Assembly (NCBI GenBank): GCA_016184225.1
Contig: JACPDA010000005.1
Span: 3,590-67,589, forward strand
From: Candidatus Daviesbacteria bacterium
GTDB lineage: Bacteria; Patescibacteriota; Microgenomatia; Daviesbacterales; UBA10151
Length of the DNA: 64,000 bases
Direction: 5' to 3'
The notes under the pieces were generated by a model. The model did not search any database. It had not been told where the DNA came from and saw nothing but the letters and a program-made list of their open reading frames with translations. Position 1 is the first letter of the stretch. Every line of letters starts with the position of its first letter. The translations under genes were made by a program, and so were the position numbers. This document shows positions 13,322-63,540 of this stretch, one piece after another.

Positions 13322-13380
13322 TTGTATCAGGTATTAAGTATTTAAGTTAGGCTTTAGGTCTTAAGTCTTAAGTCAATTCT

Positions 13381-13454
13381 GAGCCGACAGCGGGAATTGA
13401 ACCCGCGACCCCGTTCTTACCAAGAACGTGCTCTACCACTGAGCCATGTCGGCA
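13381..13454 (-). tRNA. trnT: tRNA-Thr (anticodon GGT)
   Basis: Reverse complement GCCGACATGGCTCAGTGGTAGAGCACGTTCTTGGTAAGAACG...TTCAATTCC...; anticodon loop UUGGUAA. Confidence 0.85.
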
Positions 13455-13466
13455 CAAATAACCTCA

Positions 13467-13576
13467 AGAACGTGCTCTTCCTGGGTGAATTTCATTATTA
13501 TATTTCTGCTTCGCAGATAAAATGTTATTCACCCGTTCCGACACTTTATGTCGGAACCCACTGAGCCATGTCGGCA
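13467..13576 (-). pseudogene. tRNA-Thr-derived partial copy: acceptor/D arm plus the 5' anticodon stem of the GGT tRNA, interrupted after G19 by an ~80 nt hairpin-containing insert, with no 3' half
   Basis: Segments CAAGAACGTGCTCT and CACTGAGCCATGTCGGCA are copied from the adjacent tRNA-Thr(GGT) but separated by 80 nt containing the hairpin GTTCCGACA...TGTCGGAAC. Confidence 0.4.
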
Positions 13577-13577
13577 A

Positions 13578-13652
13578 TGGAGCCGAGACCGGGATTTGAA
13601 CCCGGGACCTACTGTTTACAAAACAGTTGCTCTACCACTGAGCTATCTCGGC
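13578..13652 (-). tRNA. trnT: tRNA-Thr (anticodon TGT), CCA encoded
   Basis: Reverse complement GCCGAGATAGCTCAGTGGTAGAGCAACTGTTTTGTAAACAGT...GGTTCAAATCC...CTCGGCTCCA. Confidence 0.85.
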
Positions 13653-14078
13653 ACAGGGTATATTTTACCAAGTTTAAAGTTTAAAGTGCAAAGTTTAAAA
13701 TGGAAATTTAACAAATAGAGGTAGAAATGGACTTTTCTGTCTACAGAGTCCATTTAGAAGTATTAGGTCGATCAGAAAATGTCCAAAACAAAAAAATATA
13801 CTTCCTTCGGAAGACTATTTTCTCTCTAACGTTCGAAAATAATTCCTCCCTACCATAGTCGTCAGCCAAATTTTCTCCTCAGGAAACCTAAGGTGGGTAT
13901 CCTGTCACGTTCATGTAAACTGAACGTGAACTCCGGATTCCCGTAAAGTATCAAATCAGTGAAGAAAAATATTTTGGCTTTAAACGTGCTAAGTAGGGAT
14001 GCCTTTTTAGGCAGTCCTTCAGGCCATCTACTTATTATGTCCTTTAGGATAATTTAATAGTAATACTGATGGTTTTAT

Positions 14079-15290: not shown

Positions 15291-15326
15291 CAAAAATATC
15301 TTGGCAAAAAGTTGTATAATAAAGTC

Positions 15327-17177: not shown

Positions 17178-17844
17178 ACAATCCTACTAAAAATCCCAGG
17201 ATGGTTGTGAGTAGGGAACCGCGACCGAAAGGTACCATTAATAATATTAAAAGAATGAAAAAGCCATACGGCTCAATTCTCTGGTAGGTTTTTGCCAGGT
17301 TATATGGCAGCTGTGACAGAAGTATCTTTGACCCGTCCAAAGGGGGAATGGGGAATAGATTAAAAATCCCCAAAACCAGGTTAATTAAGACAGTGAAGCG
17401 AAGAAGTGAGCCCACAATGGCCGGAAAAGTTTGCGGCAGGGCATTTAAAAGATGATAAATTAAGGCAGCTGCAATGGCCAGACTGAAATTAGCCAAAATT
17501 CCGGCTGCAGAAACCATTAGTTCCCCTTTCCTTAAATTGGAAAAATTCAAAGGATTAACCGGCACAGGCTTGGCCCAGCCAAAAAGTATTGGTGAGCCGG
17601 TAAAAATGAGGAGTGCTGGCAAGAGGATTGTCCCAAACAGGTCAATATGGGGGAGAGGATTTAAGGTCAGTCTGCCGGCACGTTCTGCTGTATGGTCGCC
17701 AAATTTTAAAGCCACTATCCCATGCATGACTTCATGGATAATGACTGAAAAAAGTAGAATTATGATAGATATGGCAAAAAACTCAGGCATGATTACGATT
17801 GTATATACACTTGTTAATACATAGTTTATACGATTGTCATACAA
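17155..17844 (-). CDS. M50 site-2 protease family (SpoIVFB-like) membrane metalloprotease; start possibly the internal Met at ~17790
   Basis: HEVMHG (HExxH) in a TM helix and FNLFPIPPLDG (LDG motif). Confidence 0.75.
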   Translation of the reverse strand: MYDNRINYVLTSVYTIVIMPEFFAISIIILLFSVIIHEVMHGIVALKFGDHTAERAGRLTLNPLPHIDLFGTILLPALLIFTGSPILFGWAKPVPVNPLNFSNLRKGELMVSAAGILANFSLAIAAALIYHLLNALPQTFPAIVGSLLRFTVLINLVLGIFNLFPIPPLDGSKILLSQLPYNLAKTYQRIEPYGFFILLILLMVPFGRGSLLTTILGFLVGLFSNLLGF

Positions 17845-17847
17845 TTG

Positions 17848-18237
17848 TCACTCAACTGATTTTGATCTTTTAATAATCACTGATATGAAATTGTTTAACT
17901 TCACTTCTAAGTTTTTCAGGTCTTTCAGTATTTGAGAATATTCCTCATATTTACTTTTTGGTATTTGCCCTAGTTTTTCAGCAACTAGCAGGTGCGAGCG
18001 TGATTCCTGTAAAGATCCACGGGCATTGTATAAAAACTTTACAGAATCCTTATAATGAAATCTTCCAAAACTTTCTGCTATGTTTGCTGAAATGGAGACG
18101 ATAGCGCGTTTTAATTGATCTATGATTCCATATTTTTCTTCCTTAGGAAAAAACGAGAGTAATTGGTAAATCTTCACTGCTAACTCTACGGATAGCTGCC
18201 AGACTTCTAAATCCTCAAAGCTTTTGATTGTGGCCAT
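17848..18237 (-). CDS. Four-helix-bundle protein (23S rRNA IVS / Avd-like), paralog 2 of 4
   Basis: DLEVWQLSVELAVKIYQLLSFFPKEEKYGIIDQLKRAIVSISANIAESFGR... Confidence 0.75.
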   Translation of the reverse strand: MATIKSFEDLEVWQLSVELAVKIYQLLSFFPKEEKYGIIDQLKRAIVSISANIAESFGRFHYKDSVKFLYNARGSLQESRSHLLVAEKLGQIPKSKYEEYSQILKDLKNLEVKLNNFISVIIKRSKSVE

Positions 18238-18315
18238 TTTACAATTGTATCAACAACTGTGTAACTATGGTATAACCATTGTGTAACTACTGCGTCTATG
18301 TTAAACTATACGCTT

Positions 18316-29442: not shown

Positions 29443-29556
29443 GTCATTGCGAGGAACGAGTCATCGAGTGACGTGGCAATCTTGATATGAGATTTATTCC
29501 CACTAAGATTGCTTCGCTAATCCCGATTGAATCGGGACTAATCGCTCGCAATGACG
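29443..29556. promoter_or_regulatory. Palindromic leader element: long inverted repeat (ACGTCATTGCGAG ... CTCGCAATGACG) enclosing a 48 nt motif TTGCTTCGCTAATCCCGATTGAATCGGGACTAATCGCTCGCAATGACGA, nearly identical to 49261-49308
   Basis: Seen in sequence; 47/48 nt identity with the copy upstream of dcd; both copies lie directly upstream of pyrimidine-metabolism genes. Confidence 0.5.
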
Positions 29557-29580
29557 ATTTTTATATGTTAAAATTTGATC

Positions 29581-30651
29581 ATGTTGCAGATGCCTTTCTA
29601 CGATCCGAATAAAAGCTATGAAGATAATTATGACCAGGGGCCGTTTGGGGCTTTTGTCGAAGGGGAAATCCTCGAGCAAACAGGGGAGCCAAAAGAGGAT
29701 TTTTTAGGGCAAAAAGTTTTTACTCCATTCGGAATTCCGGCAGGTCCACTGATAAATGCTAAGTTTTGTAAGGCTGCTTTTGAGAAGGGCTTTGATATTT
29801 GTGTTTATAAAACAGTCAGAAGCTCTGTCTTCCCCTGCCATCCTTTCCCCAATATTTTGGCTGTAAAACTCGAAGGCGATTTAACCTCTGAGAAGGCTAA
29901 AACTAAGCTTATTGCAGACAATAATTACTCCGAGCCTCTGTCCATTACCAACTCCTTTGGAGTGCCTTCCAAGAAGCCTAATGTTTGGCAGGAAGATGTT
30001 AAAAAGGCTTTTTTCTCTGCCGGAGCCGGCCAGGTTTTGGTTTTAAGCTTTATGGGTACTGTCCGGGAAGGTCAAACTGCGGAAGAGTTTGTGGCTGATT
30101 ATGCTTTGGCTGCCAAGCTCTCAAAAGAAACCGGTGCCAAAGTGCTGGAAGCCAATTTGTCCTGCCCAAATATAGGTAATGAAGGCTTAGTTTGTTATAA
30201 CTTGGAAATGACGGAAAAGGTTTGTGAAGCCATCAGGAAAGAAATTGGCGACACCCCTTTGGTCCTAAAAGTTGGTTACTATACCTCTGATGAAGATTTG
30301 AAAAAGCTGGTGGAAATAGCCGGAAAATATGCCAATGCTATTGCGGCCATTAATACCATTTCAGCTGAAGTGGTGAATCAGGAAGGTAAGCAGGCATTAC
30401 CGGGAAATAATAGGCTCCGTTCAGGGGTTTGTGGAGCTGGGATTAAGTGGGCCGGCCTGGATATGGTCAAAAGACTGAGAAAGGTAACAGGGTACAGGGT
30501 ACAGGGTACAGTAAAAATTATAGGTGTGGGTGGAGTAACTAAGCCGGAAGATTATTTTGAATACAGGCAAGCCGGGGCAGATGCTGTAATGTCGGCCACC
30601 GGAGCCATGTGGAACCCCTATTTAGCAAAGGAAATTAAAGAAAAAATCTGA
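29581..30651 (+). CDS. pyrD: Dihydroorotate dehydrogenase-family flavoenzyme (class 1 DHODH / dihydropyrimidine dehydrogenase-like)
   Basis: ANLSCPN active-site loop, IIGVGGV, FMN-binding pattern; next to pyrE and pyrF; contains an in-frame GGGTACA x3 repeat at 30488-30510. Confidence 0.7.
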   Translation: MLQMPFYDPNKSYEDNYDQGPFGAFVEGEILEQTGEPKEDFLGQKVFTPFGIPAGPLINAKFCKAAFEKGFDICVYKTVRSSVFPCHPFPNILAVKLEGDLTSEKAKTKLIADNNYSEPLSITNSFGVPSKKPNVWQEDVKKAFFSAGAGQVLVLSFMGTVREGQTAEEFVADYALAAKLSKETGAKVLEANLSCPNIGNEGLVCYNLEMTEKVCEAIRKEIGDTPLVLKVGYYTSDEDLKKLVEIAGKYANAIAAINTISAEVVNQEGKQALPGNNRLRSGVCGAGIKWAGLDMVKRLRKVTGYRVQGTVKIIGVGGVTKPEDYFEYRQAGADAVMSATGAMWNPYLAKEIKEKI

Positions 30652-34767: not shown

Positions 34768-35556
34768 GTGACTAAGGTTATCCCTGATATTAAAGCATTC
34801 CTGATTTTAATATTTTTTAGTTTGTTAATTTTTTTCTTGGACACTGTTAAACTTTTAGATTTGCCAAAAAGGTCCTTTTATTATGTTACTAATCCGATTT
34901 CTTTTGGGATTTATAATACCAACAGAAATATTGGCAAGCAATTTCATTTTATTTTCCAGGCCCGTTTTGCTGCCCAGGAAAACAAGGCTTTAAAGCAGCA
35001 GATCGGAAAACTGCTTTCGGAAAATGCCGAGCTTCGGAAAAAGCTGGCAGAAACCGAAAGTTTAATTTCTCAGGAAAGACATCTTGATCCCGGGACTTAT
35101 AATCTCCTGCCGGCCAGGCCGATTGGACTGGGCAGATACTTAAAAATAGATAAGGGTACAGCCTCCGGTATTAAGGTAAACCAGGCAGTTGTGTTTGAAG
35201 ATAACTTTGTGGGTAAAGTGGTTGCTGTTTCTTCTGCATCTTCAAATATAGAGTTGCCGACAGATCCGAGCTCAAAAGTAGCCGCATTCTCGCAAAATAA
35301 TGAAGGCAGGGCAAAAGGGGTAGTCGTAGGACAATTCGGGACTGAAGTTTTAATGGATAAGATATTGCATGAAGAGAAGATAACAGAGGGGGATTTGGTT
35401 TATTCGGAAGGACTGGAAGGATTCTTGCCCCGGGGGCTTATTTTAGGCCGGGTGACAAAAGTGCTGGAGAGGGAAAATGAAGTGTTTAAGCAGGCAAAGG
35501 TTCAACCTGTATTTGATATCAGGGATTTGGAGTTAGTGTTTGTGATCCAGGAATAG
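34768..35556 (+). CDS. mreC: Rod shape-determining protein MreC (GTG start; possibly leaderless behind an extended -10 TGGTATATT)
   Basis: TM plus coiled coil, then beta-domains with GDLVYSEGLEGFLPRGLILGRV. Confidence 0.7.
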   Translation: MTKVIPDIKAFLILIFFSLLIFFLDTVKLLDLPKRSFYYVTNPISFGIYNTNRNIGKQFHFIFQARFAAQENKALKQQIGKLLSENAELRKKLAETESLISQERHLDPGTYNLLPARPIGLGRYLKIDKGTASGIKVNQAVVFEDNFVGKVVAVSSASSNIELPTDPSSKVAAFSQNNEGRAKGVVVGQFGTEVLMDKILHEEKITEGDLVYSEGLEGFLPRGLILGRVTKVLERENEVFKQAKVQPVFDIRDLELVFVIQE

Positions 35557-35624
35557 CTATCAGTCATCAGTCTTCAGCTATCAGACAAATAAGTCTGACG
35601 ACTGAAGGCTGACAGCTGACGACT
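35557..35624. repeat. Family-A heptamer-periodic palindromic element filling the whole mreC-mreD spacer (stop to start)
   Basis: CTATCAGTCATCAGTCTTCAGCTATCAGAC-loop-GTCTGACGACTGAAGGCTGACAGCTGACGACT. Confidence 0.8.
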
Positions 35625-35630
35625 CTAATT

Positions 35631-36074: not shown

Positions 36075-36137
36075 TGACTAGAGTCAAGAGTCAAGGAAAA
36101 TAAATTCTAGACTCTAGATTCTAGCGACTAGTCCCTA
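36072..36137. repeat. Family-C palindromic element (GAGTCAA/GAGTCTA heptamers, CTAGAGTCTAG cores) filling the mreD-mrdA spacer
   Basis: TAGTGACTAGAGTCAAGAGTCAAGG...TTCTAGACTCTAGATTCTAGCGACTAGTCCC. Confidence 0.8.
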
Positions 36138-36141
36138 ACTT

Positions 36142-39166: not shown

Positions 39167-39517
39167 ATGCCCAAACTAATCCTGTTTCTGATTGCTTTAA
39201 TTGTTGTTATCTTAACCGCTATCTTTACACTTATCTTCAATAATGCAGCACTGAAATCAACTTCTAAAAGTGAAATTGATACTGCTGTTAATCAAGCTCA
39301 ACATGTTTACCGTCAAAGGAAGAAAGTGAGTGAAGATTTCTCAACCGGCCCTTGTCTTTCAGATGCTTTAATGCCCGGGTGGGTGGCTGATATTGCCCAC
39401 AGTCCCCGCTTGCCTACCGACGACCTGCCGGAAAACCAATGCCCGGCATACCTGGAGGGAAGGGCAGAACATTTTGTAGAGCTTGATACAGAGGGGAATT
39501 TAATCAGAGCAAGATAG
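39167..39517 (+). CDS. Hypothetical membrane-anchored protein
   Basis: ORF with one N-terminal TM. Confidence 0.3.
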   Translation: MPKLILFLIALIVVILTAIFTLIFNNAALKSTSKSEIDTAVNQAQHVYRQRKKVSEDFSTGPCLSDALMPGWVADIAHSPRLPTDDLPENQCPAYLEGRAEHFVELDTEGNLIRAR

Positions 39518-39585
39518 AGTCAAGAGTCTAGAATCTAGAGTCTAGGAAAAAATTACTTGACTCTAGACTCTAGCGACTAGTCACT
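39515..39585. repeat. Family-C palindromic element filling the spacer before the Clp ATPase gene
   Basis: TAGAGTCAAGAGTCTAGAATCTAGAGTCTAGG...TTGACTCTAGACTCTAGCGACTAGTCACT. Confidence 0.8.
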
Positions 39586-43688: not shown

Positions 43689-45839
43689 ATGACTAATTTA
43701 GTAATTGTGGAATCACCTACAAAAGCAAGAACACTGCAAAGATTTCTGGGTGATAAATATCAAATTGAAGCTTCCATGGGGCATGTCAGGGACCTGCCCA
43801 AGTCTGAGCTGGGAGTGGATGTGGATAAAAACTTTGAGCCCCAGTATATTATCCCCCGCGATAAGAAAAAAAGGGTAAATGAGCTAAAAAAAGTGGCAAA
43901 GACAGCAGATACCCTTTGGCTGGCTACAGATCCTGATCGGGAAGGTGAGGCGATCGCCTGGCATTTGTCAGAATTGCTGCGCAATTCTGAAGTGAAAAGT
44001 GCAAAGTGCAAAGTGCAAAGTGGGGAAACAGATATTAAAAGAGTAGTGTTTCATGAGATTACAGAACAAGCCATTAAGGAAGCCTTTGAGAATCCCAGAA
44101 GTATCGATCTAAAGCTGGTCGATGCCCAGCAAGCCAGAAGGGTACTGGACAGGTTGGTAGGTTATAAACTTTCTCCCTTGCTATGGGAAAAAGTTAAAAG
44201 AGGGTTGTCTGCCGGAAGAGTGCAATCCGTGGCCCTGCGGCTGATAGTGGAAAGAGAAAGGGAAGTTGTTGCTTTTAAGGCAGAGGAGTATTGGAATATT
44301 GAGGTAGAGCTGGAAGGTAACAGTGGACAGGCAACAGGCGACAGTTTCATTGCCACTTTAATAGAGCAAAACGGCAAGAAACTGGAAATCGGCAGTAAAG
44401 AGGAAGCAGATGGGCATGTTAAAAATTTGGAAAAAGCGCAGTATCAAGTTTCTAAGGTTACCCAAAGAGAGGTTCGCCGTTTCCCTTATCCGCCGTTTAC
44501 CACTTCAACTATGCAGCAGGCGGCAGCAAATAAACTTGGAATGTCTGCCAAAAAAACCATGATGCTCGCCCAAGCTTTGTATGAACACGGGTTGATTACC
44601 TACATGAGGACAGATTCTGTTAATTTATCCTCTCAGGCAATCGGAGCAGTAAGAGACTATATTGGAAATTTTATTGGCAAACCTTATTTGCCAAGTGTGG
44701 CCAGGGTTTTTAAGTCTAAATCCAAAAATGCCCAGGAAGCGCATGAGGCGATCAGGGTCACAGACGTCAGTCGTCAGTCGTCAGTCGTCAGACAAATTTC
44801 AAGTATGAATAAAGATCATGCCCGGCTTTATGAGCTGATTTGGAAAAGGTTTGTGGCTTGTCAAATGAATGAGGCGGTGATAGATCAGACCACGGTGGAT
44901 GTGAGTGCCGGCAACAATGTCATTCTGGGGACGAAAGAAGTGAGGACTCCAGAATCTTTAAGGAAGGATTCTGGACAAGCCAGAATGACATGCAACTATC
45001 TCCTTCGGGCAACCGGTAGTGTAATTAAGTTCGATGGCTGGTTAAAGCTATATGGCAAGGGTACAGGTGACAGTGAACAGGGGACAGAAGAAGATAAAGA
45101 AAAAATACTGCCGAAACTTGCAGAAAAAGAGCCGCTTAACCTGATTCAGCTTTTACCAGGCCAGCATTTTACAGAACCTCCCCCGAGATATAATGAGGCT
45201 TCTTTGATTAAAAAACTGGAGGAACTGGGGATTGGCCGGCCTTCTACTTATGCGCCGATTTTATCTACCATTCAGGAGCGGTTTTATGTGGAAAAATTGG
45301 AGAGAAAATTTATTCCAACCTCACTGGGTACAACTGTCATTGATTTTTTGATGGAGTATTTTGCGGATATTATTGACTATGCTTTTACCGCTCAAATGGA
45401 GGATGAGCTGGATGAGATAGCCAGGGGGGAAAGGCAGTGGCGCCCAACCATTAAAACGTTTTATGAACCATTTGAGAAAAAGTTGATTGAGACGGAAAAG
45501 AAAGCTAAAAAAGTGAAAATGGAAGTAGAGTTTGCTGGTAAAAAGTGTCCTGAGTGCGGGAAAGAGCTGATTGTCAGAATTGGCAAGTTTGGCAAGTTCC
45601 TGGCTTGTTCCGGTTTTCCGGAGTGCAAGCATACGGAATCTTTGGAAGAAAAAATTAATGCCAAGTGTCCGGATGACGGTGGGGATATTGTGGTCAGGCA
45701 TACCAAAAGAGGAAAAACTTTTTACGGCTGCAAAAACTGGCCGGTCTGCAAATTTGCTTCTTGGACAAAACCCAAGACAGGCAACAGTGCGCAGGCGACA
45801 GGCGACAGTAACACAGACAGCAAAAATGAGAACGCATAA
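43689..45839 (+). CDS. topA: DNA topoisomerase I with C-terminal zinc ribbons; carries at least six in-frame repeat blocks
   Basis: TOPRIM N-terminus (LVIVESPTKARTL), core domains, CPECGKEL...C and ...CKNWPVC zinc fingers. Confidence 0.9.
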   Translation: MTNLVIVESPTKARTLQRFLGDKYQIEASMGHVRDLPKSELGVDVDKNFEPQYIIPRDKKKRVNELKKVAKTADTLWLATDPDREGEAIAWHLSELLRNSEVKSAKCKVQSGETDIKRVVFHEITEQAIKEAFENPRSIDLKLVDAQQARRVLDRLVGYKLSPLLWEKVKRGLSAGRVQSVALRLIVEREREVVAFKAEEYWNIEVELEGNSGQATGDSFIATLIEQNGKKLEIGSKEEADGHVKNLEKAQYQVSKVTQREVRRFPYPPFTTSTMQQAAANKLGMSAKKTMMLAQALYEHGLITYMRTDSVNLSSQAIGAVRDYIGNFIGKPYLPSVARVFKSKSKNAQEAHEAIRVTDVSRQSSVVRQISSMNKDHARLYELIWKRFVACQMNEAVIDQTTVDVSAGNNVILGTKEVRTPESLRKDSGQARMTCNYLLRATGSVIKFDGWLKLYGKGTGDSEQGTEEDKEKILPKLAEKEPLNLIQLLPGQHFTEPPPRYNEASLIKKLEELGIGRPSTYAPILSTIQERFYVEKLERKFIPTSLGTTVIDFLMEYFADIIDYAFTAQMEDELDEIARGERQWRPTIKTFYEPFEKKLIETEKKAKKVKMEVEFAGKKCPECGKELIVRIGKFGKFLACSGFPECKHTESLEEKINAKCPDDGGDIVVRHTKRGKTFYGCKNWPVCKFASWTKPKTGNSAQATGDSNTDSKNENA

Positions 45840-46179
45840 AGATCTAACTGTTTGGCAGAAGTCCATGGATCTTGTAGAGAAAATCTATAAAATAACAAAC
45901 AATCTGCCTAGATCTGAATTATCCGGACTTATATCACAAATGCAGCGTTCTGCTGTCGCTATTCCATCAAATATTGCGGAAGGTGCCAAGCGAGAACATA
46001 GAGCAGAATATATTCAATTCCTTTCTATAGCTAACGGGTCTGCTTCAGAATTAGAAACACAACTTATCCTTACCAGTAAATTGTATCCTAACTTCAAGAT
46101 CGAGGTTAAAGATGCAATGATTGTTCTAGATGAAATATTAAAGATGCTTTATTCTTTGATGAAATCTTTAAAGAACTAA
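45826..46179 (+). CDS. Four-helix-bundle protein (Avd-like), paralog 4 of 4; overlaps the topA stop by 14 nt
   Basis: MRTHKDLTVWQKSMDLVEKIYKITNNLPRSELSGLISQMQRSAVAIPSNIAEGAKR...; the ORF-track N-terminal extension (45571-) overlaps topA and is treated as spurious. Confidence 0.65.
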   Translation: MRTHKDLTVWQKSMDLVEKIYKITNNLPRSELSGLISQMQRSAVAIPSNIAEGAKREHRAEYIQFLSIANGSASELETQLILTSKLYPNFKIEVKDAMIVLDEILKMLYSLMKSLKN

Positions 46180-46219
46180 CTGTTGCCTGTAGCCTACTGC
46201 CTGTAACCTAAAAAGATGC

Positions 46220-46305: not shown

Positions 46306-47967
46306 ATGAAATACATATTTGTCACAGGTGGTGTGATTAGTGGTTTAGGTAAGGGGATTGCCACCTCTTCAATTGCCCTGCTTTTGAAATCCGCAGGCTA
46401 TAAAGTTACCCCTATCAAGATGGATCCCTATTTAAATGTAGATGCCGGCACCATGAACCCGATTGAACACGGTGAAGTGTTTGTGCTGGATGACGGCACG
46501 GAAACTGATCAGGACTTAGGTCATTACGAGCGATTTTTGAATGAATCATTAAATGAAAAAAGTATAGCTACTCAAGGATCGATTTATCTTTCAGTAATTC
46601 AGCGGGAAAGAAATTTGGAATATGACGGGGAGTGCGTGGATGTTGTCACTTATGTGACAGAAGAAATCATCAAGCGGATTAAAGAAGCTGGTCGGGCCAG
46701 TAATGCTGATGTAGTGGTCATAGAAGTTGGCGGAACTACCGGCGAGTATCAAAATATCCTGTTTTTAGAAGCCAACAGGCTGATGAAATTAAAAAATCCG
46801 AGCGATGTCCTTCATGCCCACATTACTTATTTACCAATACCTGCCTCTATTGGTGAGATGAAGAGCAAGCCGGCCCAAATGTCTGTCCGGGATTTAAATG
46901 CCGTGGGAATCCAGCCTGATATCCTGTTGGCCAGAAGCGAGAAACCGCTGGACCAGCAAAGAATTAAAAAATTATCCATTTCCACCGGATTGGAACCGGC
47001 AGATATCATCTCTGCTCCTGATGTGGACAGTATTTATAAAGTGCCCCTGGGGTTTGATAATCAGAATCTAGCTCAGAGGTTACTGGATAAGTTGGGTTTG
47101 AAGAGGAAGAATGAAGACCTGCCTGCCGGCAGGCAGGTCATGAAGCAGTGGAAAGAATTTGTAGACAAAATTGATACTGCCAAAGATGTGGTCAAGATTG
47201 CCATTGTCGGCAAATACTTTTCTACCGGTGCTTTTACCCTGGCTGATTCATATATTTCTGTAATTGAAGCTGTCAAACATGCTGCCTGGGATCAAGGTTT
47301 AAAGCCGGAGATAACCTGGCTTGACAGCGGCAAAGTCTTGGATAATGTGGAAGTGCTCCGGAAATTCCAAGGTATTATTGTTCCCGGAGGGTTTGGTTCA
47401 AGGGATATTGAGGGTAAAATAGCTACTATCAAGTATGCCAGGGAAAATAAAATTCCCTATTTTGGACTCTGTTACGGCATGCAGCTTTCGGTAGTGGAAT
47501 ATGCCAGAAACGTATTGGAGCTCCCCGGAGCCCATACCACAGAGATTGACCCTGCTACTAAATATCCGGTCATTCATATTATGCCGGATCAAGAAAAGAA
47601 GATGCTAAATCGGGAATACGGGGCCACCATGAGGTTAGGGGCCTGGGATTGTAAGTTAAAAGAAGGTACGTATGTTTATAAATTGTATAAAGACTTTGCA
47701 CTTTCCACTTCACACTTTCCCCTTGTTTCTGAAAGGCACAGGCACAGGTTTGAGTTTAATAATGACTTTTTGGGCCAATTTATGAAAAAAGGGTTAACAA
47801 TTTCCGGTACTTCTCCTGACGGAAAGCTGGTAGAAATTATTGAACTGAAAGTCCATCCGTTTTTTGTGGGAACCCAGTTTCATCCTGAGTTAAAATCAAG
47901 GCCTCTGTCCCCGCATCCTTTGTTTGTGGGTTTCCTCAAAGCTGCTTCTAAGATCCATATAGCATGA
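46306..47967 (+). CDS. pyrG: CTP synthase
   Basis: MKYIFVTGGVISGLGKGI... synthetase domain plus a GATase domain (GLCYGMQ). Confidence 0.95.
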   Translation: MKYIFVTGGVISGLGKGIATSSIALLLKSAGYKVTPIKMDPYLNVDAGTMNPIEHGEVFVLDDGTETDQDLGHYERFLNESLNEKSIATQGSIYLSVIQRERNLEYDGECVDVVTYVTEEIIKRIKEAGRASNADVVVIEVGGTTGEYQNILFLEANRLMKLKNPSDVLHAHITYLPIPASIGEMKSKPAQMSVRDLNAVGIQPDILLARSEKPLDQQRIKKLSISTGLEPADIISAPDVDSIYKVPLGFDNQNLAQRLLDKLGLKRKNEDLPAGRQVMKQWKEFVDKIDTAKDVVKIAIVGKYFSTGAFTLADSYISVIEAVKHAAWDQGLKPEITWLDSGKVLDNVEVLRKFQGIIVPGGFGSRDIEGKIATIKYARENKIPYFGLCYGMQLSVVEYARNVLELPGAHTTEIDPATKYPVIHIMPDQEKKMLNREYGATMRLGAWDCKLKEGTYVYKLYKDFALSTSHFPLVSERHRHRFEFNNDFLGQFMKKGLTISGTSPDGKLVEIIELKVHPFFVGTQFHPELKSRPLSPHPLFVGFLKAASKIHIA

Positions 47968-49190: not shown

Positions 49191-49260
49191 CAGTAATTTC
49201 CCACTTGAAAAAAGTGACAGATTGAATACAATTGTTTAATTCAGTCTCTAAAAATATAGA

Positions 49261-49308
49261 TTGCTACGCTAATCCCGATTGAATCGGGACTAATCGCTCG
49301 CAATGACG
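49261..49308. promoter_or_regulatory. Second copy of the 48 nt palindromic motif (TTGCTACGCTAATCCCGATTGAATCGGGACTAATCGCTCGCAATGACGA), directly upstream of dcd
   Basis: 47/48 identical to 29509-29556. Confidence 0.5.
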
Positions 49309-49320
49309 AAAGAAAAAACT

Positions 49321-50068: not shown

Positions 50069-50656
50069 ATGTTCCGAATGCAAAATATGAGTGTACTAGG
50101 ACTAGATGAAATACATAAAAGAATAAAGAAACATTCCCTAATCAAGAATTTAGGCCATAGGGATTTGAAAAACCCGGAAGGGGTAGGGATAGATTTGCGG
50201 TTAGGTTCTGTTCATAAAATCGTTAAAGGCGGGGCTTTTATTGAAGGCGACAGGCAACAGGCACTAGGCAGTAGAAAGGGAGTTAAGACAAAAGAGGTTG
50301 CTAAATTTCAGCAGGAAAAAGAAGAGCAAGAATGGATTGTAATAAAGCCCGGAGAATATTATTTAGCTCAGACTGTAGAAATAATCAATACCCCTTTGGA
50401 TTTAATGCCGGAAGTTTTCACCAGGACTTCACTTTTTAGAGCCGGACTATTGCTCTTGAATTCAAAAACAGATCCCGGTTACAATGGACAGCTGACAATG
50501 GGGTTAACTAATTTAAGTCCTTTTCCGGTTAAACTGCAGCTGGGGGCCAGGATTTGTAATATAATTTTTCATAAAATAAAGGGCAAAACAGTTTCTTACC
50601 AGGGACAGCATCAGGGTGGTAGGGTAAGTCCGAAGAAAGCAGAGAGACAAGTATGA
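50069..50656 (+). CDS. Second dCTP deaminase/dUTPase-superfamily paralog
   Basis: ...FTRTSLFRAGLLL...DPGYNGQLTMGL... dcd/dut pattern; contains a heptamer block GGCGACA GGCAACA GGCACTA GGCAGTA. Confidence 0.55.
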   Translation: MFRMQNMSVLGLDEIHKRIKKHSLIKNLGHRDLKNPEGVGIDLRLGSVHKIVKGGAFIEGDRQQALGSRKGVKTKEVAKFQQEKEEQEWIVIKPGEYYLAQTVEIINTPLDLMPEVFTRTSLFRAGLLLLNSKTDPGYNGQLTMGLTNLSPFPVKLQLGARICNIIFHKIKGKTVSYQGQHQGGRVSPKKAERQV

Positions 50657-51618
50657 GCAGACCGAAGCATCAAGAATATCAATATCTGGATTTACTAAAA
50701 GACATTCTAAAAAATGGCGTTAAAAAAATTGATCGGGGTACTGATGTAGCTTTGTATAGTGTTTTTGGCCGCCAGATCCGCTTTGATCTTTCGCAAGGGT
50801 TTCCGCTTTTAACCACCAAAAAAGTGTATTGGAAGGGAGTTTTGGAAGAACTTTATTGGTTTTTTTCAGGACAATCAAATATCAAATATTTGGTAGACCG
50901 TAATGTCCACATCTGGGATGATTATCCATATAAGATTTATAGTGCCAAGTGCCAAGTGCAAAGTGCAAAGTGTTTGACCAAGGAAAAATTTATAGAGAAG
51001 ATCAGGACTGATGAGCAATTTGCCAAGAAATGGGGAGAGTTACCAAGGATTTATGGTGAGATGTGGAGACGCTGGCCCACCAGAACAAAAAGAACCATTG
51101 ATCAACTGAAATGGATAGTCCAGGAATTAAAAGATGATCCTGATGCCAAAAATTTAATTGTTAATTCCTGGAATCCCGAATATTTATATACCATGGCTAC
51201 ATATGAAGATACTTCCCATTTTCCGATTTGTCACAATATGTTTCAGATTAACCAAAGAGCAGGTAAGCTTTCCTTGCAGCTTTATCATCGCAGCTGTGAT
51301 GTTTTCTTGGGTGTGCCTTTTAATATCGCAAGTTATGCATTACTGACTATGGTTTTAGCTAAAATTACGGGATATGAGCCGGGTGAATTTATTCATACTT
51401 TTGGTGATGTCCATATTTACGAAAATCATATGGCTCAAGTTAAAGAGCAGATTAAAAGAAAACCTAAGCATTTTCCCACCGTAAAAATAGATAAAGGCTT
51501 AAAAACAATTGAAGACTTTAAGCCGGAACTGGTAACTTTAGAAAATTATGATCCGCATCCGGTAATAAAAGCTGAGTTAACTGTGGCAGGTGGATATTAT
51601 GCAAAAACCAAAAGTTAG
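50653..51618 (+). CDS. thyA: Thymidylate synthase (ThyA type) with an insertion containing a heptamer tandem repeat (50941-50972)
   Basis: ...PICHNMFQINQRAGKLSLQLYHRSCDVFLGVPFNIASYALL... catalytic Cys region. Confidence 0.9.
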   Translation: MSRPKHQEYQYLDLLKDILKNGVKKIDRGTDVALYSVFGRQIRFDLSQGFPLLTTKKVYWKGVLEELYWFFSGQSNIKYLVDRNVHIWDDYPYKIYSAKCQVQSAKCLTKEKFIEKIRTDEQFAKKWGELPRIYGEMWRRWPTRTKRTIDQLKWIVQELKDDPDAKNLIVNSWNPEYLYTMATYEDTSHFPICHNMFQINQRAGKLSLQLYHRSCDVFLGVPFNIASYALLTMVLAKITGYEPGEFIHTFGDVHIYENHMAQVKEQIKRKPKHFPTVKIDKGLKTIEDFKPELVTLENYDPHPVIKAELTVAGGYYAKTKS

Positions 51619-53239: not shown

Positions 53240-53689
53240 ATGAAGATTAATGATATAAAAAAATTAAGAGAAGAGACAGGGGCGGGGATTGCCGACTGTA
53301 AGGAGGCTCTGAGCTTGTCGAAGGGCGATATAGAGAAAGCCAAGGAGTGGTTAAAGCAGAAGGGTTTGGATAAAGCTTCTTCCAAACTTGCAAGGGAAGT
53401 TAAAGCCGGGATAGTGGAAGTTTATTCCCATGGTGGGAAAGTGGGGGTTTTGGTAGAAGTCCTCTGTGAGACTGATTTTGTGGCCAGAACCGAGGATTTC
53501 AAAAATTTAGCCCACGAACTTGCTTTGCAGATTGCTTCCATGAACCCGGCAAGCGTTGAAGAATTACTGGCGGAGGAGTATATTAGGGATAATTCTTTGA
53601 CTGTGGAGCAGTTGATTAAATCAGTGATAGGAAAGTTGGGAGAAAATATACAAGTTGGAAGGTTTGAGAGGATAGCTTTGGGAGAATAG
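53240..53689 (+). CDS. tsf: Elongation factor Ts, short form (149 aa)
   Basis: LREETGAGIADCKEAL...; GGAGG SD. Confidence 0.8.
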   Translation: MKINDIKKLREETGAGIADCKEALSLSKGDIEKAKEWLKQKGLDKASSKLAREVKAGIVEVYSHGGKVGVLVEVLCETDFVARTEDFKNLAHELALQIASMNPASVEELLAEEYIRDNSLTVEQLIKSVIGKLGENIQVGRFERIALGE

Positions 53690-53758
53690 AGTCTAGAGTC
53701 AAGAATCTAGAGTCTAGGAAAACAAAGTCTAGACTCTCGACTCTAGCAACTAGTCACT
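53687..53758. repeat. Family-C palindromic element filling the tsf-frr spacer (begins at the tsf TAG)
   Basis: TAGAGTCTAGAGTCAAGAATCTAGAGTCTAGG...GTCTAGACTCTCGACTCTAGCAACTAGTCACTAT. Confidence 0.8.
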
Positions 53759-53765
53759 ATTAAAC

Positions 53766-54320
53766 ATGGATCCGATTTTAAACGAACCGAATGAGAAAAT
53801 AGAGGCAGTATTGCACCACTTCAAAGTGGAAATTGCCGGTATCCGGGCTGGTAGGGCAAACCCGGCTTTGATAGAGAATATTTTGGTTAACGCTTATGGA
53901 TCCAACATGAAGCTTAACGAGGTGGGCAATATTTCTGCCCCGCAGCCCTCCCTTTTAACAATCCAGGTTTGGGATGCTTCTATTTTGGATAAAGTAATCA
54001 AGGCTATCCAGGAAGCAAATTTAGGTTTAAACCCTTCCAATGAAGGTACGTTAATCCGTTTGCCAATTCCTCCTTTGACTGCTGAAAGGCGTGAAGAATT
54101 TATTAAGCTGTTACATCAAAAGAGAGAGGAAGCGCATGTTTCCATCAGACAAATCAGGCATGATTTTAGAAACGGCTGGAAAAAGCAGTCAGACGAGGGT
54201 CAGTTTGGAGAGGATGAATTTTTCCGCAGGGAAAAAATTTTACAAGAGCTGGTGGACAAAAAAGTTGCAGAGATTGAAGAGTTAGGGAAAGCCAAGGCAG
54301 AAGAGCTAACACAAATATAG
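53766..54320 (+). CDS. frr: Ribosome recycling factor
   Basis: Canonical RRF sequence. Confidence 0.9.
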   Translation: MDPILNEPNEKIEAVLHHFKVEIAGIRAGRANPALIENILVNAYGSNMKLNEVGNISAPQPSLLTIQVWDASILDKVIKAIQEANLGLNPSNEGTLIRLPIPPLTAERREEFIKLLHQKREEAHVSIRQIRHDFRNGWKKQSDEGQFGEDEFFRREKILQELVDKKVAEIEELGKAKAEELTQI

Positions 54321-54393
54321 CTTTCAGTCATCAGTCTTCAGCTTTCAGACTTTTCTGATTTGTCTGACGACTGACAGCTGACAGCTGACGACT
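54321..54393. repeat. Family-A palindromic element filling the frr-rseP spacer
   Basis: CTTTCAGTCATCAGTCTTCAGCTTTCAGAC-11nt-GTCTGACGACTGACAGCTGACAGCTGACGACT, then ATTATG. Confidence 0.8.
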
Positions 54394-54396
54394 ATT

Positions 54397-56893: not shown

Positions 56894-56899
56894 AATAAT

Positions 56900-60825: not shown

Positions 60826-60854
60826 AGTTTAAACAAAAAGGAGGTGTTTTTTAA

Positions 60855-61052
60855 TTGAGTATTGTTGTCAAAGCAGGTCCGGGTGACAACACGGATTCTG
60901 TGATTAGAAAATTCCAAAAAAGAGTTGTAGCAGAAGGAATAGTTCAAGAAATTAGGGACAGGTCTGTTTATAGAAAACCATCTGAGCTTCGCCAAGAATA
61001 TCTAGCGGAGAAACGGCGAAAAATTATGCGGGCAAAAAGGTATAGTAGATAA
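60855..61052 (+). CDS. rpsU: 30S ribosomal protein S21 (TTG start behind an AAGGAGGTG SD)
   Basis: ...RKFQKRV...EIRDRSVYRKPSE...RRK... S21 pattern. Confidence 0.85.
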   Translation: MSIVVKAGPGDNTDSVIRKFQKRVVAEGIVQEIRDRSVYRKPSELRQEYLAEKRRKIMRAKRYSR

Positions 61053-61059
61053 ATACGCT

Positions 61060-61515
61060 ATGTTACTTGAAGAGTTACAAGCCGATTTAAAAAATGCTCA
61101 ACTGGCTCGTGACGCAGTTAAAGTTTCTACCCTAAGATTACTCTTGTCGGAAGTTAAAAACAAAGAAATTGAGAAGGGTAATCCGCCAGCTGGCGGATTA
61201 TCTGATGATGACATAATTTCTATTGTCCAACGGGAAGTGAAGAAAAGAAAAGAAGCGGCAGCAGGCTTTAGGTCCGGTGGCAGAGAGGAATCAGCGGTGC
61301 GGGAAGAAGCTGAACTTAAGGTTTTGGAGGCTTACCTTCCGGCACAGATGGGTAGTGAGGAGTTGACTAAACTAGTGGAAGAGACTATAAATGAGTTGGG
61401 GGCAAGCTCGCTTGCAGATATGGGGAAGGCAATAGGAGCGGTAATGAGTAAGACTAAGGGGCGGACTGATGGTGGGACGGTAAGTAATTTAGTAAGAGAA
61501 AAGCTGTCAAAATAA
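61060..61515 (+). CDS. GatB/YqeY domain protein
   Basis: YqeY family sequence. Confidence 0.8.
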   Translation: MLLEELQADLKNAQLARDAVKVSTLRLLLSEVKNKEIEKGNPPAGGLSDDDIISIVQREVKKRKEAAAGFRSGGREESAVREEAELKVLEAYLPAQMGSEELTKLVEETINELGASSLADMGKAIGAVMSKTKGRTDGGTVSNLVREKLSK

Positions 61516-61516
61516 T

Positions 61517-61933
61517 ATGGTTAATATCATCGTAAATTCAGACCCAAGATACAATATCAATAAGGCAAGCATCAGGGCTACAGTTTCGGAAATACTCGGA
61601 AAGCTTCGCATCTCCGGCCGTATTGAATTAGGGATTAATATTGTGGGGGATCGGAAGATGCACGAGCTTAATCGGAAATACCGAGGATTAGATACAACCA
61701 CCAACATTTTGTCTTTCGCCTTGGAAGACCCAACCCAACCTGCCAGCTTGCAACATGTTCCAAGAGTTGGTTTTGTGGCAGCACCCGATAAATGGTTAAG
61801 GTTAGGGGATATTGTTATTTCATACCCTCAAGCAGTCGAAGATGCTTCACTTGAGGGTATCTCTGTAGATGAAGAGGTGAAATACTTAGTGGAGCATGGG
61901 GTAAATCATCTCTTGGGAGTTCACCATAATTAA
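61517..61933 (+). CDS. ybeY: Endoribonuclease YbeY (rRNA maturation factor)
   Basis: ...ILSFAL... and HGVNHLLGVHH zinc-binding motif. Confidence 0.8.
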   Translation: MVNIIVNSDPRYNINKASIRATVSEILGKLRISGRIELGINIVGDRKMHELNRKYRGLDTTTNILSFALEDPTQPASLQHVPRVGFVAAPDKWLRLGDIVISYPQAVEDASLEGISVDEEVKYLVEHGVNHLLGVHHN

Positions 61934-63540
61934 TGGGAAATATAGCTTATTATTTAAAGTACCGCCCCCAGAGCCTTGACGACCTAATAGGTCAAGAGGT
62001 TGTAAAAAAAACACTTCTTTCGTCTTTTCAAAACAATAAGCTAGCTCATGCCTACCTTTTTAGAGGTCCCCGAGGTACAGGTAAAACATCCACTGCCAGA
62101 ATTTTGGCCAAGATGGTTAATTGTGAGTTAGCTCGTGATTCGTTTAACATTCCATGCAACAAATGTCCTACATGTATTTCAATGACCGATGGATCCAACC
62201 TGGATTTAATTGAGATTGATGCTGCCTCTAACCGTGGCATAGAAGATATTAGGTCTTTGCGGGATAAAATTAAACTTGCTCCAACAAGTTCGAAGAAAAA
62301 AGTATACATCATTGATGAAGTTCATATGTTAACTATGGAAGCTTTTAATGCCCTTCTTAAGACTTTGGAGGAACCCCCTGAGCATGCTTTGTTTATTCTG
62401 GCAACGACCGAAGTCGGGAAAATCCCGCAGACTATCCTATCTAGGGTACAACGGTTGGATTTTAAATTGGCTAAACCCCAGGAGATTTCGGAGGCACTAA
62501 GAAAAATTATCAAAGAGGAAAAAATCGATATTGAGGAGGAAGCACTTAAGATTTTGGTAAAGCGTGCAGATGGCAGTTTTAGAGACGGAGTAAAATTCTT
62601 GGATCAGGTAAGTTCTGAAAGAAACAAAATTACAGCCAAATCTTTGGAAGAAAATTTAAAACCAACCCAATTCGAAGACCTCTTTCTGCTGATAAAAAAT
62701 TTTTCGGAAAAGGATGCAGCCAAGAGTTTGCTTAGTGTTTCAAAACAAATTGACAGTGGGGTAGAGGTTAAAGAGTTGATGTTGTCCTTAATGGATATTT
62801 TGCGAAGCTTGGTATTTATTAAAAACGGACTGGGGGGGCAATTAGTAGAACCTCAATTCACAGAAGACAAATATGAGGAAGTTGTAATGTTGTCTGCTAA
62901 TTTTTCCAATCAGGATTTAGTAAAGATGCTGGATATTTTGCAGAAAGCTATGGAAAAATTGAAGTTTGCTTTAATTCTGTCATTGCCGCTGGAGTTGGCG
63001 GTGGTAGAGATATGCGGGGAACAGTCGTCAGTCATCAGTCCCGACGAATTTCATTCATCGAGGATCCTCGAGAATCGGGATCGTCAGTCATCAGCAAAGG
63101 AAGCATCAGTACGAGAGAAATTAGATGTTGGAAGCGAGAAGTTAGATGAAGAAGTTAGAAATTCTAATCTCCAACATCCAATATCTAATGATGATATCCT
63201 CAAGCTTAAGGAGAAGTGGACTTTTGTATTGGAGACTGTCCGATCATTTAATTATTCCTTAGAAGCGCTTCTGAGGTCTGTGAATATTACTGAATGTAGC
63301 GAGGACGCAGTCATAATGGAAGTTCCGTACTCTTTCCATCAAAGAATCCTGGAAGCTCCTAAAAATAGGGATCTTTTAGAAGGGGTGTTTTCCGATATTT
63401 TAGGAAGAACTATTAGAATCTCGGTCAGTTTAGGTAACCGTCCCGAAAGGCGCGAAGACATCGCCAATATAGAATTAGCAGCAGATGATGAAATTATCCG
63501 GGCCGCTGCCGAAATCTTCAATTCCGATACTATTAATTAA
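61933..63540 (+). CDS. dnaX: DNA polymerase III subunit gamma/tau; linker region carries an in-frame family-A repeat block (63030-63095)
   Basis: LFRGPRGTGKTSTARILAKMVNC Walker A, a C4 zinc module, DEVHML sensor region. Confidence 0.9.
   Translation: MGNIAYYLKYRPQSLDDLIGQEVVKKTLLSSFQNNKLAHAYLFRGPRGTGKTSTARILAKMVNCELARDSFNIPCNKCPTCISMTDGSNLDLIEIDAASNRGIEDIRSLRDKIKLAPTSSKKKVYIIDEVHMLTMEAFNALLKTLEEPPEHALFILATTEVGKIPQTILSRVQRLDFKLAKPQEISEALRKIIKEEKIDIEEEALKILVKRADGSFRDGVKFLDQVSSERNKITAKSLEENLKPTQFEDLFLLIKNFSEKDAAKSLLSVSKQIDSGVEVKELMLSLMDILRSLVFIKNGLGGQLVEPQFTEDKYEEVVMLSANFSNQDLVKMLDILQKAMEKLKFALILSLPLELAVVEICGEQSSVISPDEFHSSRILENRDRQSSAKEASVREKLDVGSEKLDEEVRNSNLQHPISNDDILKLKEKWTFVLETVRSFNYSLEALLRSVNITECSEDAVIMEVPYSFHQRILEAPKNRDLLEGVFSDILGRTIRISVSLGNRPERREDIANIELAADDEIIRAAAEIFNSDTIN

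Follow-up and report, generated by a model that had tools for sequence, protein, structure and literature searches.

What generates tandem repeats of a 7-nt unit, and how do they come to lie both between genes and inside essential ones? The question is raised by a 64,000-nt stretch from a Candidatus Daviesbacteria bacterium (assembly GCA_016184225.1, contig JACPDA010000005.1, positions 3,590 to 67,589 of the forward strand), the whole of which is called the window below. An earlier note on this DNA had described heptamer arrays in intergenic regions and in intact open reading frames (ORFs); both kinds are present, and what it overlooked is that many arrays form inverted pairs, that is, hairpins, and that genes of the PF05635 family lie between such pairs. 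On balance, we favor the reading that the arrays represent the arms of small hairpin elements belonging to one family, which occur as full-length elements carrying a PF05635 gene, as ORF-less hairpins produced by deletion, and as solitary arms in coding sequence. Directly observed are the architecture of the elements, the dispersal of their families, their absence from orthologous junctions, and PF05635 genes bracketed by such arms across phyla, two classical intervening sequences (IVSs) of 23S rRNA among them.

Heptamer Arrays in the Window

Arrays were called with Tandem Repeats Finder (TRF), by counts of perfect runs, and by a mismatch-tolerant self-shift scan, using dinucleotide-preserving shuffles as the null. 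Period 7 accounts for 40 of the 74 TRF rows; essentially every block listed in the earlier note is recovered, and the arrays found throughout the window are thus real. There are 13 perfect period-7 runs of at least 2.5 copies (0.15 expected from shuffles) and five of at least three copies (0 expected), with none at periods 8–15. The mismatch-tolerant scan, which applies to the window the enrichment check proposed in the note, gives 18 period-7 arrays (2.8 per 10 kb), where shuffles give 0.1; period 14, a harmonic of 7, gives 11, and the remaining periods are close to zero. Apart from this harmonic, no tandem period other than 7 is enriched here.

About half of the arrays are intergenic or at gene edges (TRF places intergenic ones at 13354-13374 and 13670-13699), and non-coding DNA makes up 11% of the window. 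Their size is narrowly distributed: among 32 window arrays nearly all have 3–4.7 units, with a mode of 4 and a maximum of 4.7 units (33 nt), and four units are also the commonest size in relatives (28 of 65 arrays). With 33 nt as the maximum, the open-ended length distribution, including long arrays, that one expects of long simple sequence repeats (SSRs) is not seen.

The thyA array is spanned by four independent Logan contigs from other sequencing runs, all 100% identical to the window, which shows that the arrays are not an assembly artefact. Logan unitigs of the same population (L133 and L134; L numbers denote the loci compared) begin at or just past the dcd array (50237, 50280) and one ends at 53716, inside a family B hairpin, consistent with repeats breaking de Bruijn graph assembly. 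Length differences in protein cluster 8 were considered as possible array variation and rejected, since they are start-site artefacts.

The arrays fall into four unit families, TCAGNNN/NNNCTGA (family A), CTAGAGT/AGAGTCA (family B), ACAGGNN, and AAAGTGC, and the window contains dispersed direct families (D1–D8) and inverted matches (I1–I25). Copies of families A and B are 81–95% identical to each other. Similarity can reach beyond the repeats: topA positions 44767-44797 match the hairpin at 25390 exactly over 31 nt, seven non-repeat bases included, and the dprA array has a 19-nt exact match to the family B hairpin of the hyp131/clpB junction.

PF05635 Genes between Heptamer Arms

The window contains four genes of PF05635 ("23S rRNA intervening-sequence protein," S23p, a bAvd-like four-helix bundle; E-values 1e-36 to 7.5e-32), three of which have heptamer arms on both sides. 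Arrays at both ends are found in three of the 73 window genes, two of these being PF05635 genes.

The family A cassette (22925..23345) gives the plan of the element. Its left arm, (TCAGNNN)x4 at 23345-23306, runs directly into the ATG, and its right arm, (NNNCTGA)x4 at 22960-22925, includes the stop codon of the ORF and ends in ...ACTATT followed by the ATG of the next gene. The closest solved structure to its protein is PDB 2GSC, a five-chain entry (E = 1e-18). This ORF was also considered as a transposase like those associated with repetitive extragenic palindromes (RAYT-like) in a hairpin loop, a candidate rejected upon its assignment to PF05635 by Pfam. In the second cassette the left arm, (ACAGGNN)x5 at 45776-45812 (TRF row 45776-45808), encodes the final ~20 residues of TopA, and the right arm is (CTGTNNC)x4 at 46180-46212 (TRF row 46184-46210); its product has 84% amino acid identity with that of L081 positions 12006-12359, an orthologous cassette with the same arms. 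In the third, the array at 13347-13374 is of GACTTAA type on the minus strand and the two arms are weakly complementary.

Terminal inverted repeats that could fold into a stem of ~20–30 bp, as in IVSs, thus surround 22940-23305 and 45826-46179 and, in weaker form, 12965-13321. The window contains no rRNA, and the cassettes lie between protein-coding genes, not in helix 25 or 45 of 23S rRNA. Neither are there hallmarks of diversity-generating retroelements: no reverse transcriptase domain was found in the 60 ORFs scanned with Pfam, nor any long repeats of the template/variable type in the window.

Arms Accompany PF05635 Genes in Other Genomes

The association was followed in 25 PF05635 loci. 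Heptamer arms are present in 20 and octamer arms in three, the other two fitting neither; short-period arrays stand on at least one side in 23 of the 25. Flanks were available for five homologues of the 22940-23305 product (L137, L139, L140, L148, and L285). Their identities are 91, 85, 79, 59, and 58%, and the 58% one (L148) belongs to a metagenome-assembled genome (MAG) of Omnitrophica. In each of the five, a left arm (TCAGNNN)n leads straight into the start codon and a right arm (NNNCTGA)n covers the stop codon. Their neighborhoods differ: argS and a phosphoesterase, a hypothetical gene and a pilin, uppS and another gene, two glycosyltransferases, and PD-(D/E)XK and mazE. In what is apparently the same pair of genomes, the cassette protein has 91% identity and TopA 79%; the higher identity of the cassette, together with the differing locations, argues for mobility. 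Among 87 arm units the CAG of the TCAG core is invariant (units were selected on spaced CAG), T occupies position 1 in 81, and positions 5–7 vary. TAACTGA as such is not the arm unit, which is NNNCTGA with a variable NNN.

A tblastn search of 72,556 plasmids gave 28 records, nearly all cyanobacterial. All 14 plasmid loci that were fetched have short-period arrays beside the PF05635 gene, and eight have inverted heptamer pairs. Two Nostoc PCC 7120 plasmid copies with the same protein have a heptamer array downstream only, and a Pseudanabaena copy has heptamer arrays of 13–15 copies on both sides in direct orientation. Plasmid genes are wedged in operons: between cas6 and cas4 (Pseudanabaena, Anabaena sp. 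90), between cas10 and cmr3 (Picosynechococcus), and between ribonucleotide reductase subunit genes (among L149, L159, L157, and L161). In Azospirillum lipoferum the copy is situated within the 23S rRNA gene itself and is a classical IVS, with arms GACGGAT/GACAGAG and inverse; these arms are two of only four period-7 arrays in 50 kb. The Coxiella burnetii IVS has three to four copies of GACAGAT before the S23p ATG, in numbers that vary between strains; RNase III cleaves its 28-bp terminal stem at the first of these repeats (PMC4990558). With the exception of this study, no link between heptamer repeats and PF05635 was found in the searchable literature.

ORF-Less Hairpins at Gene Junctions

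Inverted array pairs form seven hairpins of 70–85 nt (fold z -2.7 to -5.5) that span junctions of co-directional genes from stop codon to start codon, the upstream TAG being the first triplet of the element (in the hairpin at 39515..39585, for example, the first TAG is the stop codon of the upstream gene). The hairpin at 54318..54396 reads TAG stop, (TCAGNNN)x4, loop, (NNNCTGA)x4, ACTATT, ATG. Six of six family A right arms end 3–9 nt before an ATG in the same orientation and, like the TAACTGA repeats discussed below, they lie near the start codon without a Shine-Dalgarno sequence. Because a 7-nt unit is coprime with 3, the start-codon-proximal arms place TGA or TAG in all three frames. No T-runs follow the hairpins, and they match no known RNA family, an Rfam scan of the window returning tRNAs only. 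A candidate outward sigma-70 promoter in the right arm (CTGACA-N16-TATTAT) was set aside, since its -10 box would overlap the ATG.

The ORF-less family A hairpins align collinearly with both ends, left and right, of the 22940-23305 cassette and keep its bases after the left arm ("TCAGAC-AT") and before the right arm ("TTAA-GTCTGA"). Bases kept next to both arms indicate deletion of the ORF rather than its capture. At three junctions (mreC/mreD, mreD/pbp2, and hyp131/clpB) the genes are separated by 67–74 nt in the window versus -7 to +12 nt in most relatives: -4 to +2 nt at mreC/mreD in seven of nine relatives, -7 to +10 nt at mreD/pbp2, and -4 to +12 nt at hyp131/clpB in most. Since the orthologous junctions are this tight, these hairpins are insertions. 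Three relatives (L092, L089, and L085) have different heptamer-periodic inserts at these junctions. Families A and B have the dispersed, near-identical ORF-less copies with inverted ends of miniature inverted-repeat transposable elements (MITEs) and of the paired repetitive extragenic palindromes known as REPINs, and their presence/absence at orthologous sites at three junctions.

As a side observation on gene starts, 59 of the 73 window genes lack a Shine-Dalgarno-like motif, and many have a TAnnnT box 5–12 nt upstream of the ATG, which suggests that leaderless or Shine-Dalgarno-independent initiation may be widespread.

Arrays Inside Coding Sequence

Coding arrays use the same unit families as the arms and are read in all three frames, always in stop-free orientations. 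Ortholog alignments bear out the earlier proposal that the blocks stand in intact housekeeping ORFs and are lineage-specific, and also that they occupy loops and linkers: the DprA and DnaX linkers, loops and the C-terminal tail of TopA, and the variable small domain of ThyA. The further idea that a block of three copies amounts to 21 nt read as extra peptide applies to topA site 1, pyrG (+8 amino acids), and the Wzy-type gene (+5 amino acids), but not to thyA, dcd, topA site 3, or dprA, where patches have the same length as in relatives and take the place of native sequence. The dnaX block is weak and agrees only in part with the earlier description, positions 63022-63040 having 2.7 copies and positions 63116-63160 being 61% periodic. 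The gene called ligase-like encodes, according to Pfam, an O-antigen ligase/Wzy_C membrane protein and not a DNA ligase. The TopA of the window is 100% identical to MBI2196857.1.

At topA site 3, different lineages have different heptamers. An identical 28-nt core is common to the window and L082 there, although the genes are only 77% identical and agree in only 56% of the codons for the same amino acid. The dprA linker has a heptamer-periodic tract of ~30 nt in nearly every relative, of equal length and with a lineage-specific unit, a pattern of concerted evolution; in L083 and L081 the tract is 9-nt-periodic (AGGTCCAAT x2) and one codon shorter. L092 has an independent +8 amino acids at the pyrG site, made of a different unit. 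Positions of these and the other elements are listed in Table 1.

Table 1. Heptamer cassettes, hairpins, coding arrays, and the accompanying palindromes in the window
Feature	Positions	Strand	Location and unit	Measure or repeat match
Family A full-length cassette	22925..23345	-	ORF 22940-23305	PF05635, E=1e-36
Second cassette	45776..46212	+	PF05635 ORF 45826-46179, overlaps topA stop codon	tblastn, TRF
Third cassette	12938..13374	-	ORF 12965-13321; arrays 13347-13374 and 12938-12965	PF05635, E=7.5e-32
Fourth PF05635 gene	17848-18237 within 17816..18290	-	11-nt-period inverted flanks	E=7.9e-33
Family A hairpin	54318..54396	+	frr/rseP junction; aligns with cassette ends	-30.2 kcal/mol, z=-4.5
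Family A hairpin	35554..35630	+	mreC/mreD junction	z=-5.5
Family A hairpin	21720..21802	-	def/fmt junction (neighbors by Pfam)	z=-5.3
Family A hairpin	25390..25464	-	directly upstream of Wzy-type start codon, 400-nt divergent spacer	z=-3.2
Family A copy, truncated left arm	7767..7815	-	right arm (NNNCTGA)x4 ends ...ACTATTATC-ATG of EamA-like gene	
Family B hairpin	39515..39585	+	hyp131/clpB junction; (CTAGAGT/CAAGAGT)n and inverse	z=-3.1
Family B hairpin	53687..53765	+	tsf/frr junction	D1 (95%), D4
Family B hairpin	36075..36141	+	mreD/pbp2 junction	z=-4.9
Family B right-arm-like copy	1358..1399	-	upstream of L1 start codon	D4, I24
topA site 1	43990..44022	+	variable-length insertion hot spot after Toprim domain	(AAAGTGC)x4.7
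topA site 2	44311..44344	+	ACAGGNN-type	TRF, D5
topA site 3	44761..44791	+	constant-length loop; encodes SRQSSVVRQ	(CAGTCGT)x4.4
topA site 4	45058..45087	+	degenerate ACAGGNN-type	69%; TRF, D5
dprA linker	38932..38962	+	between DprA domain and winged-helix domain	(AGAGTCA)x4.4
thyA patch	50941..50972	+	variable small domain, L. casei-type ThyA; length as in relatives	(AGTGCCA/AGTGCAA)x4.6
dcd patch	50245..50274	+	AGGCGAC-type; length as in relatives; TRF row 50245-50263	
pyrD-like array	30487..30511	+		(ACAGGGT)x3.6, 100%
pyrG insertion	47693..47717	+	ACTTTGC-type, reverse complement of AAAGTGC	+8 aa
Wzy-type gene array	23946..23977	-	sense ACCCTAT; insertion of +5 aa	ATAGGGT x4.6, 100%
Weaker AT-rich Wzy-type arrays	24119-24186, 24744-24770, 25207-25238 (TRF row 25214-25239)	-		TRF 73-88%
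dnaX array	63022..63040	+	linker, domain III to C-terminal domain	(CAGTCGT/CAGTCAT)x2.7
Solitary intergenic AAAGTTT/AAAGTGC array	13670..13711	+	adjoins tRNA-Thr	D16, D20
GTCATTCTGG...CCAGAATGAC palindrome	44918-44990		topA	
GTCATTCTGG...CCAGAATGAC palindrome	24612-24677	-	Wzy-type gene	
GTCATTCTGG...CCAGAATGAC palindrome	49334-49369		dcd paralogue	

Taxonomic Spread of the Arrays

As a negative control, 80 unrelated bacterial TopA loci (1.4 Mb, taken among the matches listed, with no Daviesbacteria among them) were scanned. They contain 21 period-7 arrays (0.15 per 10 kb), of which 14 come from two Patescibacteria loci, L029 and L014; in the former, inverted array pairs are also found at gene junctions. 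Against the 2.8 per 10 kb of the window, unrelated bacteria thus stand at about 0.05. The syntenic loci of other Daviesbacteria have 0–3.4 arrays per 10 kb, and there too period 7 (with its harmonic 14) is alone enriched. The heptamer trait is therefore lineage-specific, varies in intensity within Daviesbacteria, and recurs elsewhere in the candidate phyla radiation (CPR). In IMG/VR contigs (L165–L284), (TCAGNNN)5 occurs in at least 120 stretches, with spacers that vary within an array, and 46 of 244 such arrays have an inverted partner at most 120 nt away.

How the Elements May Arise and Spread

In the model we favor, each arm consists of about four tandem heptamers (28–33 nt) with a conserved core and a variable spacer (TCAG+NNN), the two arms being inverted. 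The full-length form holds the PF05635 gene in the loop, with the left arm running into the ATG and the right arm over the stop codon, and internal deletion of such a cassette would yield the ORF-less hairpin of 70–85 nt. In the transcript the arms would pair and RNase III would cleave them, by analogy with 23S IVSs, separating the cassette from its neighbors; such excision would make insertion into an operon nearly harmless, and keeping stop and start codons together at the base of the stem may preserve translational coupling. A solitary arm in coding DNA would survive only when stop-free, in frame, and in a tolerant loop, linker, or tail. Because the gain or loss of one 7-nt unit shifts the reading frame of an essential gene, coding patches were probably copied in one step from a pre-formed arm, by ectopic conversion or template switching, and not unit by unit through slippage. 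Conversion or multi-unit slippage could then keep the arrays homogeneous within each lineage. One may also speculate that the PF05635 protein binds its own arms, the hints being the conserved core with variable spacer, the ceiling of four to five units, and the pentameric fold.

Several observations weigh against this model. The fourth PF05635 gene (17848-18237) has flanks of period 11 and not 7 (TRF, 17828-17850 and 18258-18287), the homologue in L287 (from P0194, 63% identity) has no clear period, and three plasmid copies have inverted octamer pairs with an 8-nt period. None of the cassettes found has family B or AAAGTGC arms, and these two families can be tied to cassettes only by analogy. 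The Pfam scan of 60 window ORFs shows no transposase, reverse transcriptase, or RNase III gene. The three insertions compared all have TA at both borders, and 2 nt is too short for a target-site duplication. There is no signal of selection on RNA structure in mismatch counts or covariation: stem mismatches comprise eight G-U and 11 A-C pairs, without RNA wobble bias, and RNAalifold gives the stems a covariation term of -0.12 with two compensatory pairs. A single population is sampled, with Logan contigs 100% identical and 90% protein clusters single-member, in which no strain-level variation in copy number or in presence/absence could be seen. Finally, there is no PF05635 gene within 22 kb at the heptamer-rich loci L029 and L014, and no PF05635 ORF was found near the (TCAGNNN)5 arrays in the 80 IMG/VR loci searched (685 kb). 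Heptamer arrays are widespread without a PF05635 gene, and since this reverse association fails, the claim is limited to PF05635 genes having such arms and to the arrays of this genome having unit families in common with them, not extended to all arrays deriving from cassettes.

Could the arrays be ordinary long SSRs, grown by in-place slippage with an intrinsic 7-nt preference (Mrazek's polymerase-contact idea) and then sorted by selection, with PF05635 genes and hairpins incidental? Heptanucleotides are reported to be the most abundant class of long SSRs in many prokaryotes (PMC4679880), and copy number in Coxiella differs between strains (PMC4990558). The units of the dprA linker and of topA site 3 differ between lineages while being homogeneous within each, as expected if slippage drove concerted evolution, and viral contigs have arrays without PF05635. 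Slippage, however, predicts arbitrary units with falling lengths, whereas four families are seen with a mode of 4 and a ceiling of 4.7 units. Identity between loci reaches into non-repeat flanks; neither inverted pairs at junctions nor the bracketing of 23 of 25 PF05635 genes is predicted; and single-unit steps would frameshift topA, thyA, and dnaX. We therefore regard this explanation as unlikely. The earlier note had left the generating mechanism between slippage and a mobile micro-element, and the latter fits better than plain slippage, given that unit families recur together with non-repeat flanks and that intergenic copies are insertions.

Another explanation takes the heptamers before start codons as cis-regulatory sites that attract ribosomes or keep them off, or to which an RNA-binding protein attaches, the hairpins tuning downstream expression. 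The role proposed for TAACTGA repeats in Beggiatoaceae offers a parallel, as does HutP, which recognizes (UAG-N4)n. The position of all six family A right arms 3–9 nt before an ATG, one of them in a 400-nt divergent spacer, the scarcity of Shine-Dalgarno sequences (absent from 59 of 73 genes), the stop codons that closely precede the start codon in each of the three frames, a conserved core with variable spacer as in protein-binding repeats, and the position and core (reverse complement TCAGTTA) shared with TAACTGA repeats all agree with it. Yet close relatives lack the elements at these junctions, which hence are not conserved regulators, the same units occur within coding regions and around PF05635 genes in unrelated neighborhoods, and no candidate binding protein besides the PF05635 product was identified, which makes regulation a quite improbable origin. 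It is also very doubtful that the hairpins are the primary selfish element, MITE- or REPIN-like and mobilized in trans, with PF05635 genes as passengers that landed in or were captured by their loops: ORF-less copies do outnumber gene-bearing ones by ~9 to 3 in the window, L029, L014, and viral contigs have arrays but not the gene, and TA borders the three compared insertions, but the ORF-less copies keep cassette bases beside the arms, which suggests deletion and not capture, the arms co-vary with the PF05635 lineage (the TCAG core persisting down to 58% protein identity), and the window has no transposase.

Relation to Known Repeats

Among known systems, the model of cassettes and derived arms comes closest to the 23S IVSs of Coxiella, Leptospira, and Azospirillum, which have a PF05635 ORF in the loop of a terminal-repeat stem of ~28 bp and, in Coxiella and Azospirillum, heptamers in the arm directly before the ATG. 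The window cassettes differ in lying between or overlapping protein-coding genes, not in helix 25 or 45 of 23S rRNA, and in being accompanied by many ORF-less derivatives and solitary coding arms; RNase III cleavage in the window is proposed by analogy. Rickettsia palindromic elements and the Correia and REP-type elements of Neisseria are small palindromes found at junctions and in frame at tolerant gene sites, and Correia stems are substrates of RNase III. The window elements resemble them as small palindromes dispersed in a reduced genome by junction and in-frame insertion; those elements are not known to consist of 7-nt tandem units or to have a full-length form bearing PF05635.

The short tandemly repeated repetitive (STRR) heptamers of cyanobacteria were reportedly described by Mazel in 1990. 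Like STRRs and long heptanucleotide SSRs, the window arrays are 7-nt tandems over-represented in particular lineages with many unit sequences, and the PF05635 plasmid homologues, nearly all cyanobacterial, are flanked by such arrays; but STRR arrays can be long (13–15 copies in Pseudanabaena), whereas those of the window stop at ~4.7 units. The searchable literature yielded nothing that connects STRRs with PF05635 or with IVS elements.

Over-representation of heptanucleotide long SSRs in prokaryotes is attributed to Mrazek 2007 in PMC4679880. The TAACTGA repeats of marine Beggiatoaceae, cyanobacteria, and Bacteroidetes (MacGregor 2015, PMC4679880) are also CTGA-core heptamers in two to six copies, a few nucleotides upstream of start codons, with stops in three frames, rare Shine-Dalgarno sequences, and reverse copies in frame at protein ends. 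They have one fixed unit, mostly in direct orientation (one indirect repeat in 169 sets), and no reported PF05635 association (PMC4679880), whereas in the window spacers vary, inverted pairs are common, and copies are internal to essential genes. Borg elements likewise have recent lineage-specific tandem repeats that add disordered peptide segments, but every in-ORF unit there is divisible by three (PMC9879509), unlike the 7-nt unit of the window, which is read in all three frames.

That the arrays belong to no described repeat class, as had been supposed, is thus incorrect: heptanucleotide repeats are a recognized class (Mrazek 2007 via PMC4679880; the cyanobacterial STRRs; TAACTGA), and Coxiella has heptamers before its PF05635 ORF (PMC4990558). 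Already described are the heptanucleotide class itself, TAACTGA repeats at start codons, and IVSs with an S23p ORF. In-frame palindromic elements have likewise been described, in Rickettsia. A general bracketing of PF05635 genes by heptamers, with spread through protein-coding operons and CPR coding loops, was not found in the searchable literature.

Other Repeats and Genes in the Window

The palindrome GTCATTCTGG...CCAGAATGAC is inserted in frame, encodes "VILG..TPES..DSGQARMT," and is distinct from the heptamer arms. It is missing from most TopA orthologues, and other lineages have other palindromic inserts at the same TopA site ("SEAKQS...PRND"), in resemblance to Rickettsia palindromic elements. 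A 52-nt palindromic intergenic repeat occurs at 29506-29557 and 49258-49309 in copies that are 98% identical; its end, ...CGCTCGCAATGAC, comes shortly before the pyrD-like gene in one case and the dcd-paralogue gene in the other. In L107 the hyp131/clpB junction is occupied by a related palindrome of GGAATGAC type.

Three paralogous proteins with a helix-turn-helix and a PaaX_M/Cas2-like domain are encoded at 9230-9736, 12212-12730, and 56272-56832, the second gene being flanked by a conserved 35-nt palindrome (TAGACAAACATTATACGG...TGTCT) at 12176 and 12728. Two proteins have long N-terminal extensions before the Pfam domain, ribosomal protein L1 (473-1357, minus strand; ~110 amino acids) and NusG (1817-2575, minus strand; ~80 amino acids); period-10 and period-12 repeats occur at 639-664 and 2433-2451. 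Period-21 and period-15 repeats (33199-33254 and 33626-33668) lie in two ORFs without a Pfam match (33032-33478 and 33543-34337).

Implications

Two long-open puzzles, the abundance of 7-nt repeats and the role of the PF05635/23S-IVS gene, are physically linked in 23 of 25 loci from at least six phyla; STRRs were reportedly described in 1990, and the heptamer bias is said to date from 2007. It is possible, and we put it forward tentatively, that a PF05635 pentamer and arms of four to five heptamers make up one functional unit and a cross-phylum class of cassettes, in which the protein would recognize the arms, one repeat per subunit, for spread or processing. STRRs, TAACTGA repeats, and CPR heptamers might then largely be footprints or ORF-less derivatives of such cassettes, with the 23S IVS as the best-tolerated site. 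In practice, the arms appear to break short-read assemblies, and they lengthen annotated proteins. For the organism, the finding means that a reduced CPR genome tolerates arms in TopA, ThyA, DnaX, DprA, and PyrG, an unusual source of lineage-specific loops and tails.

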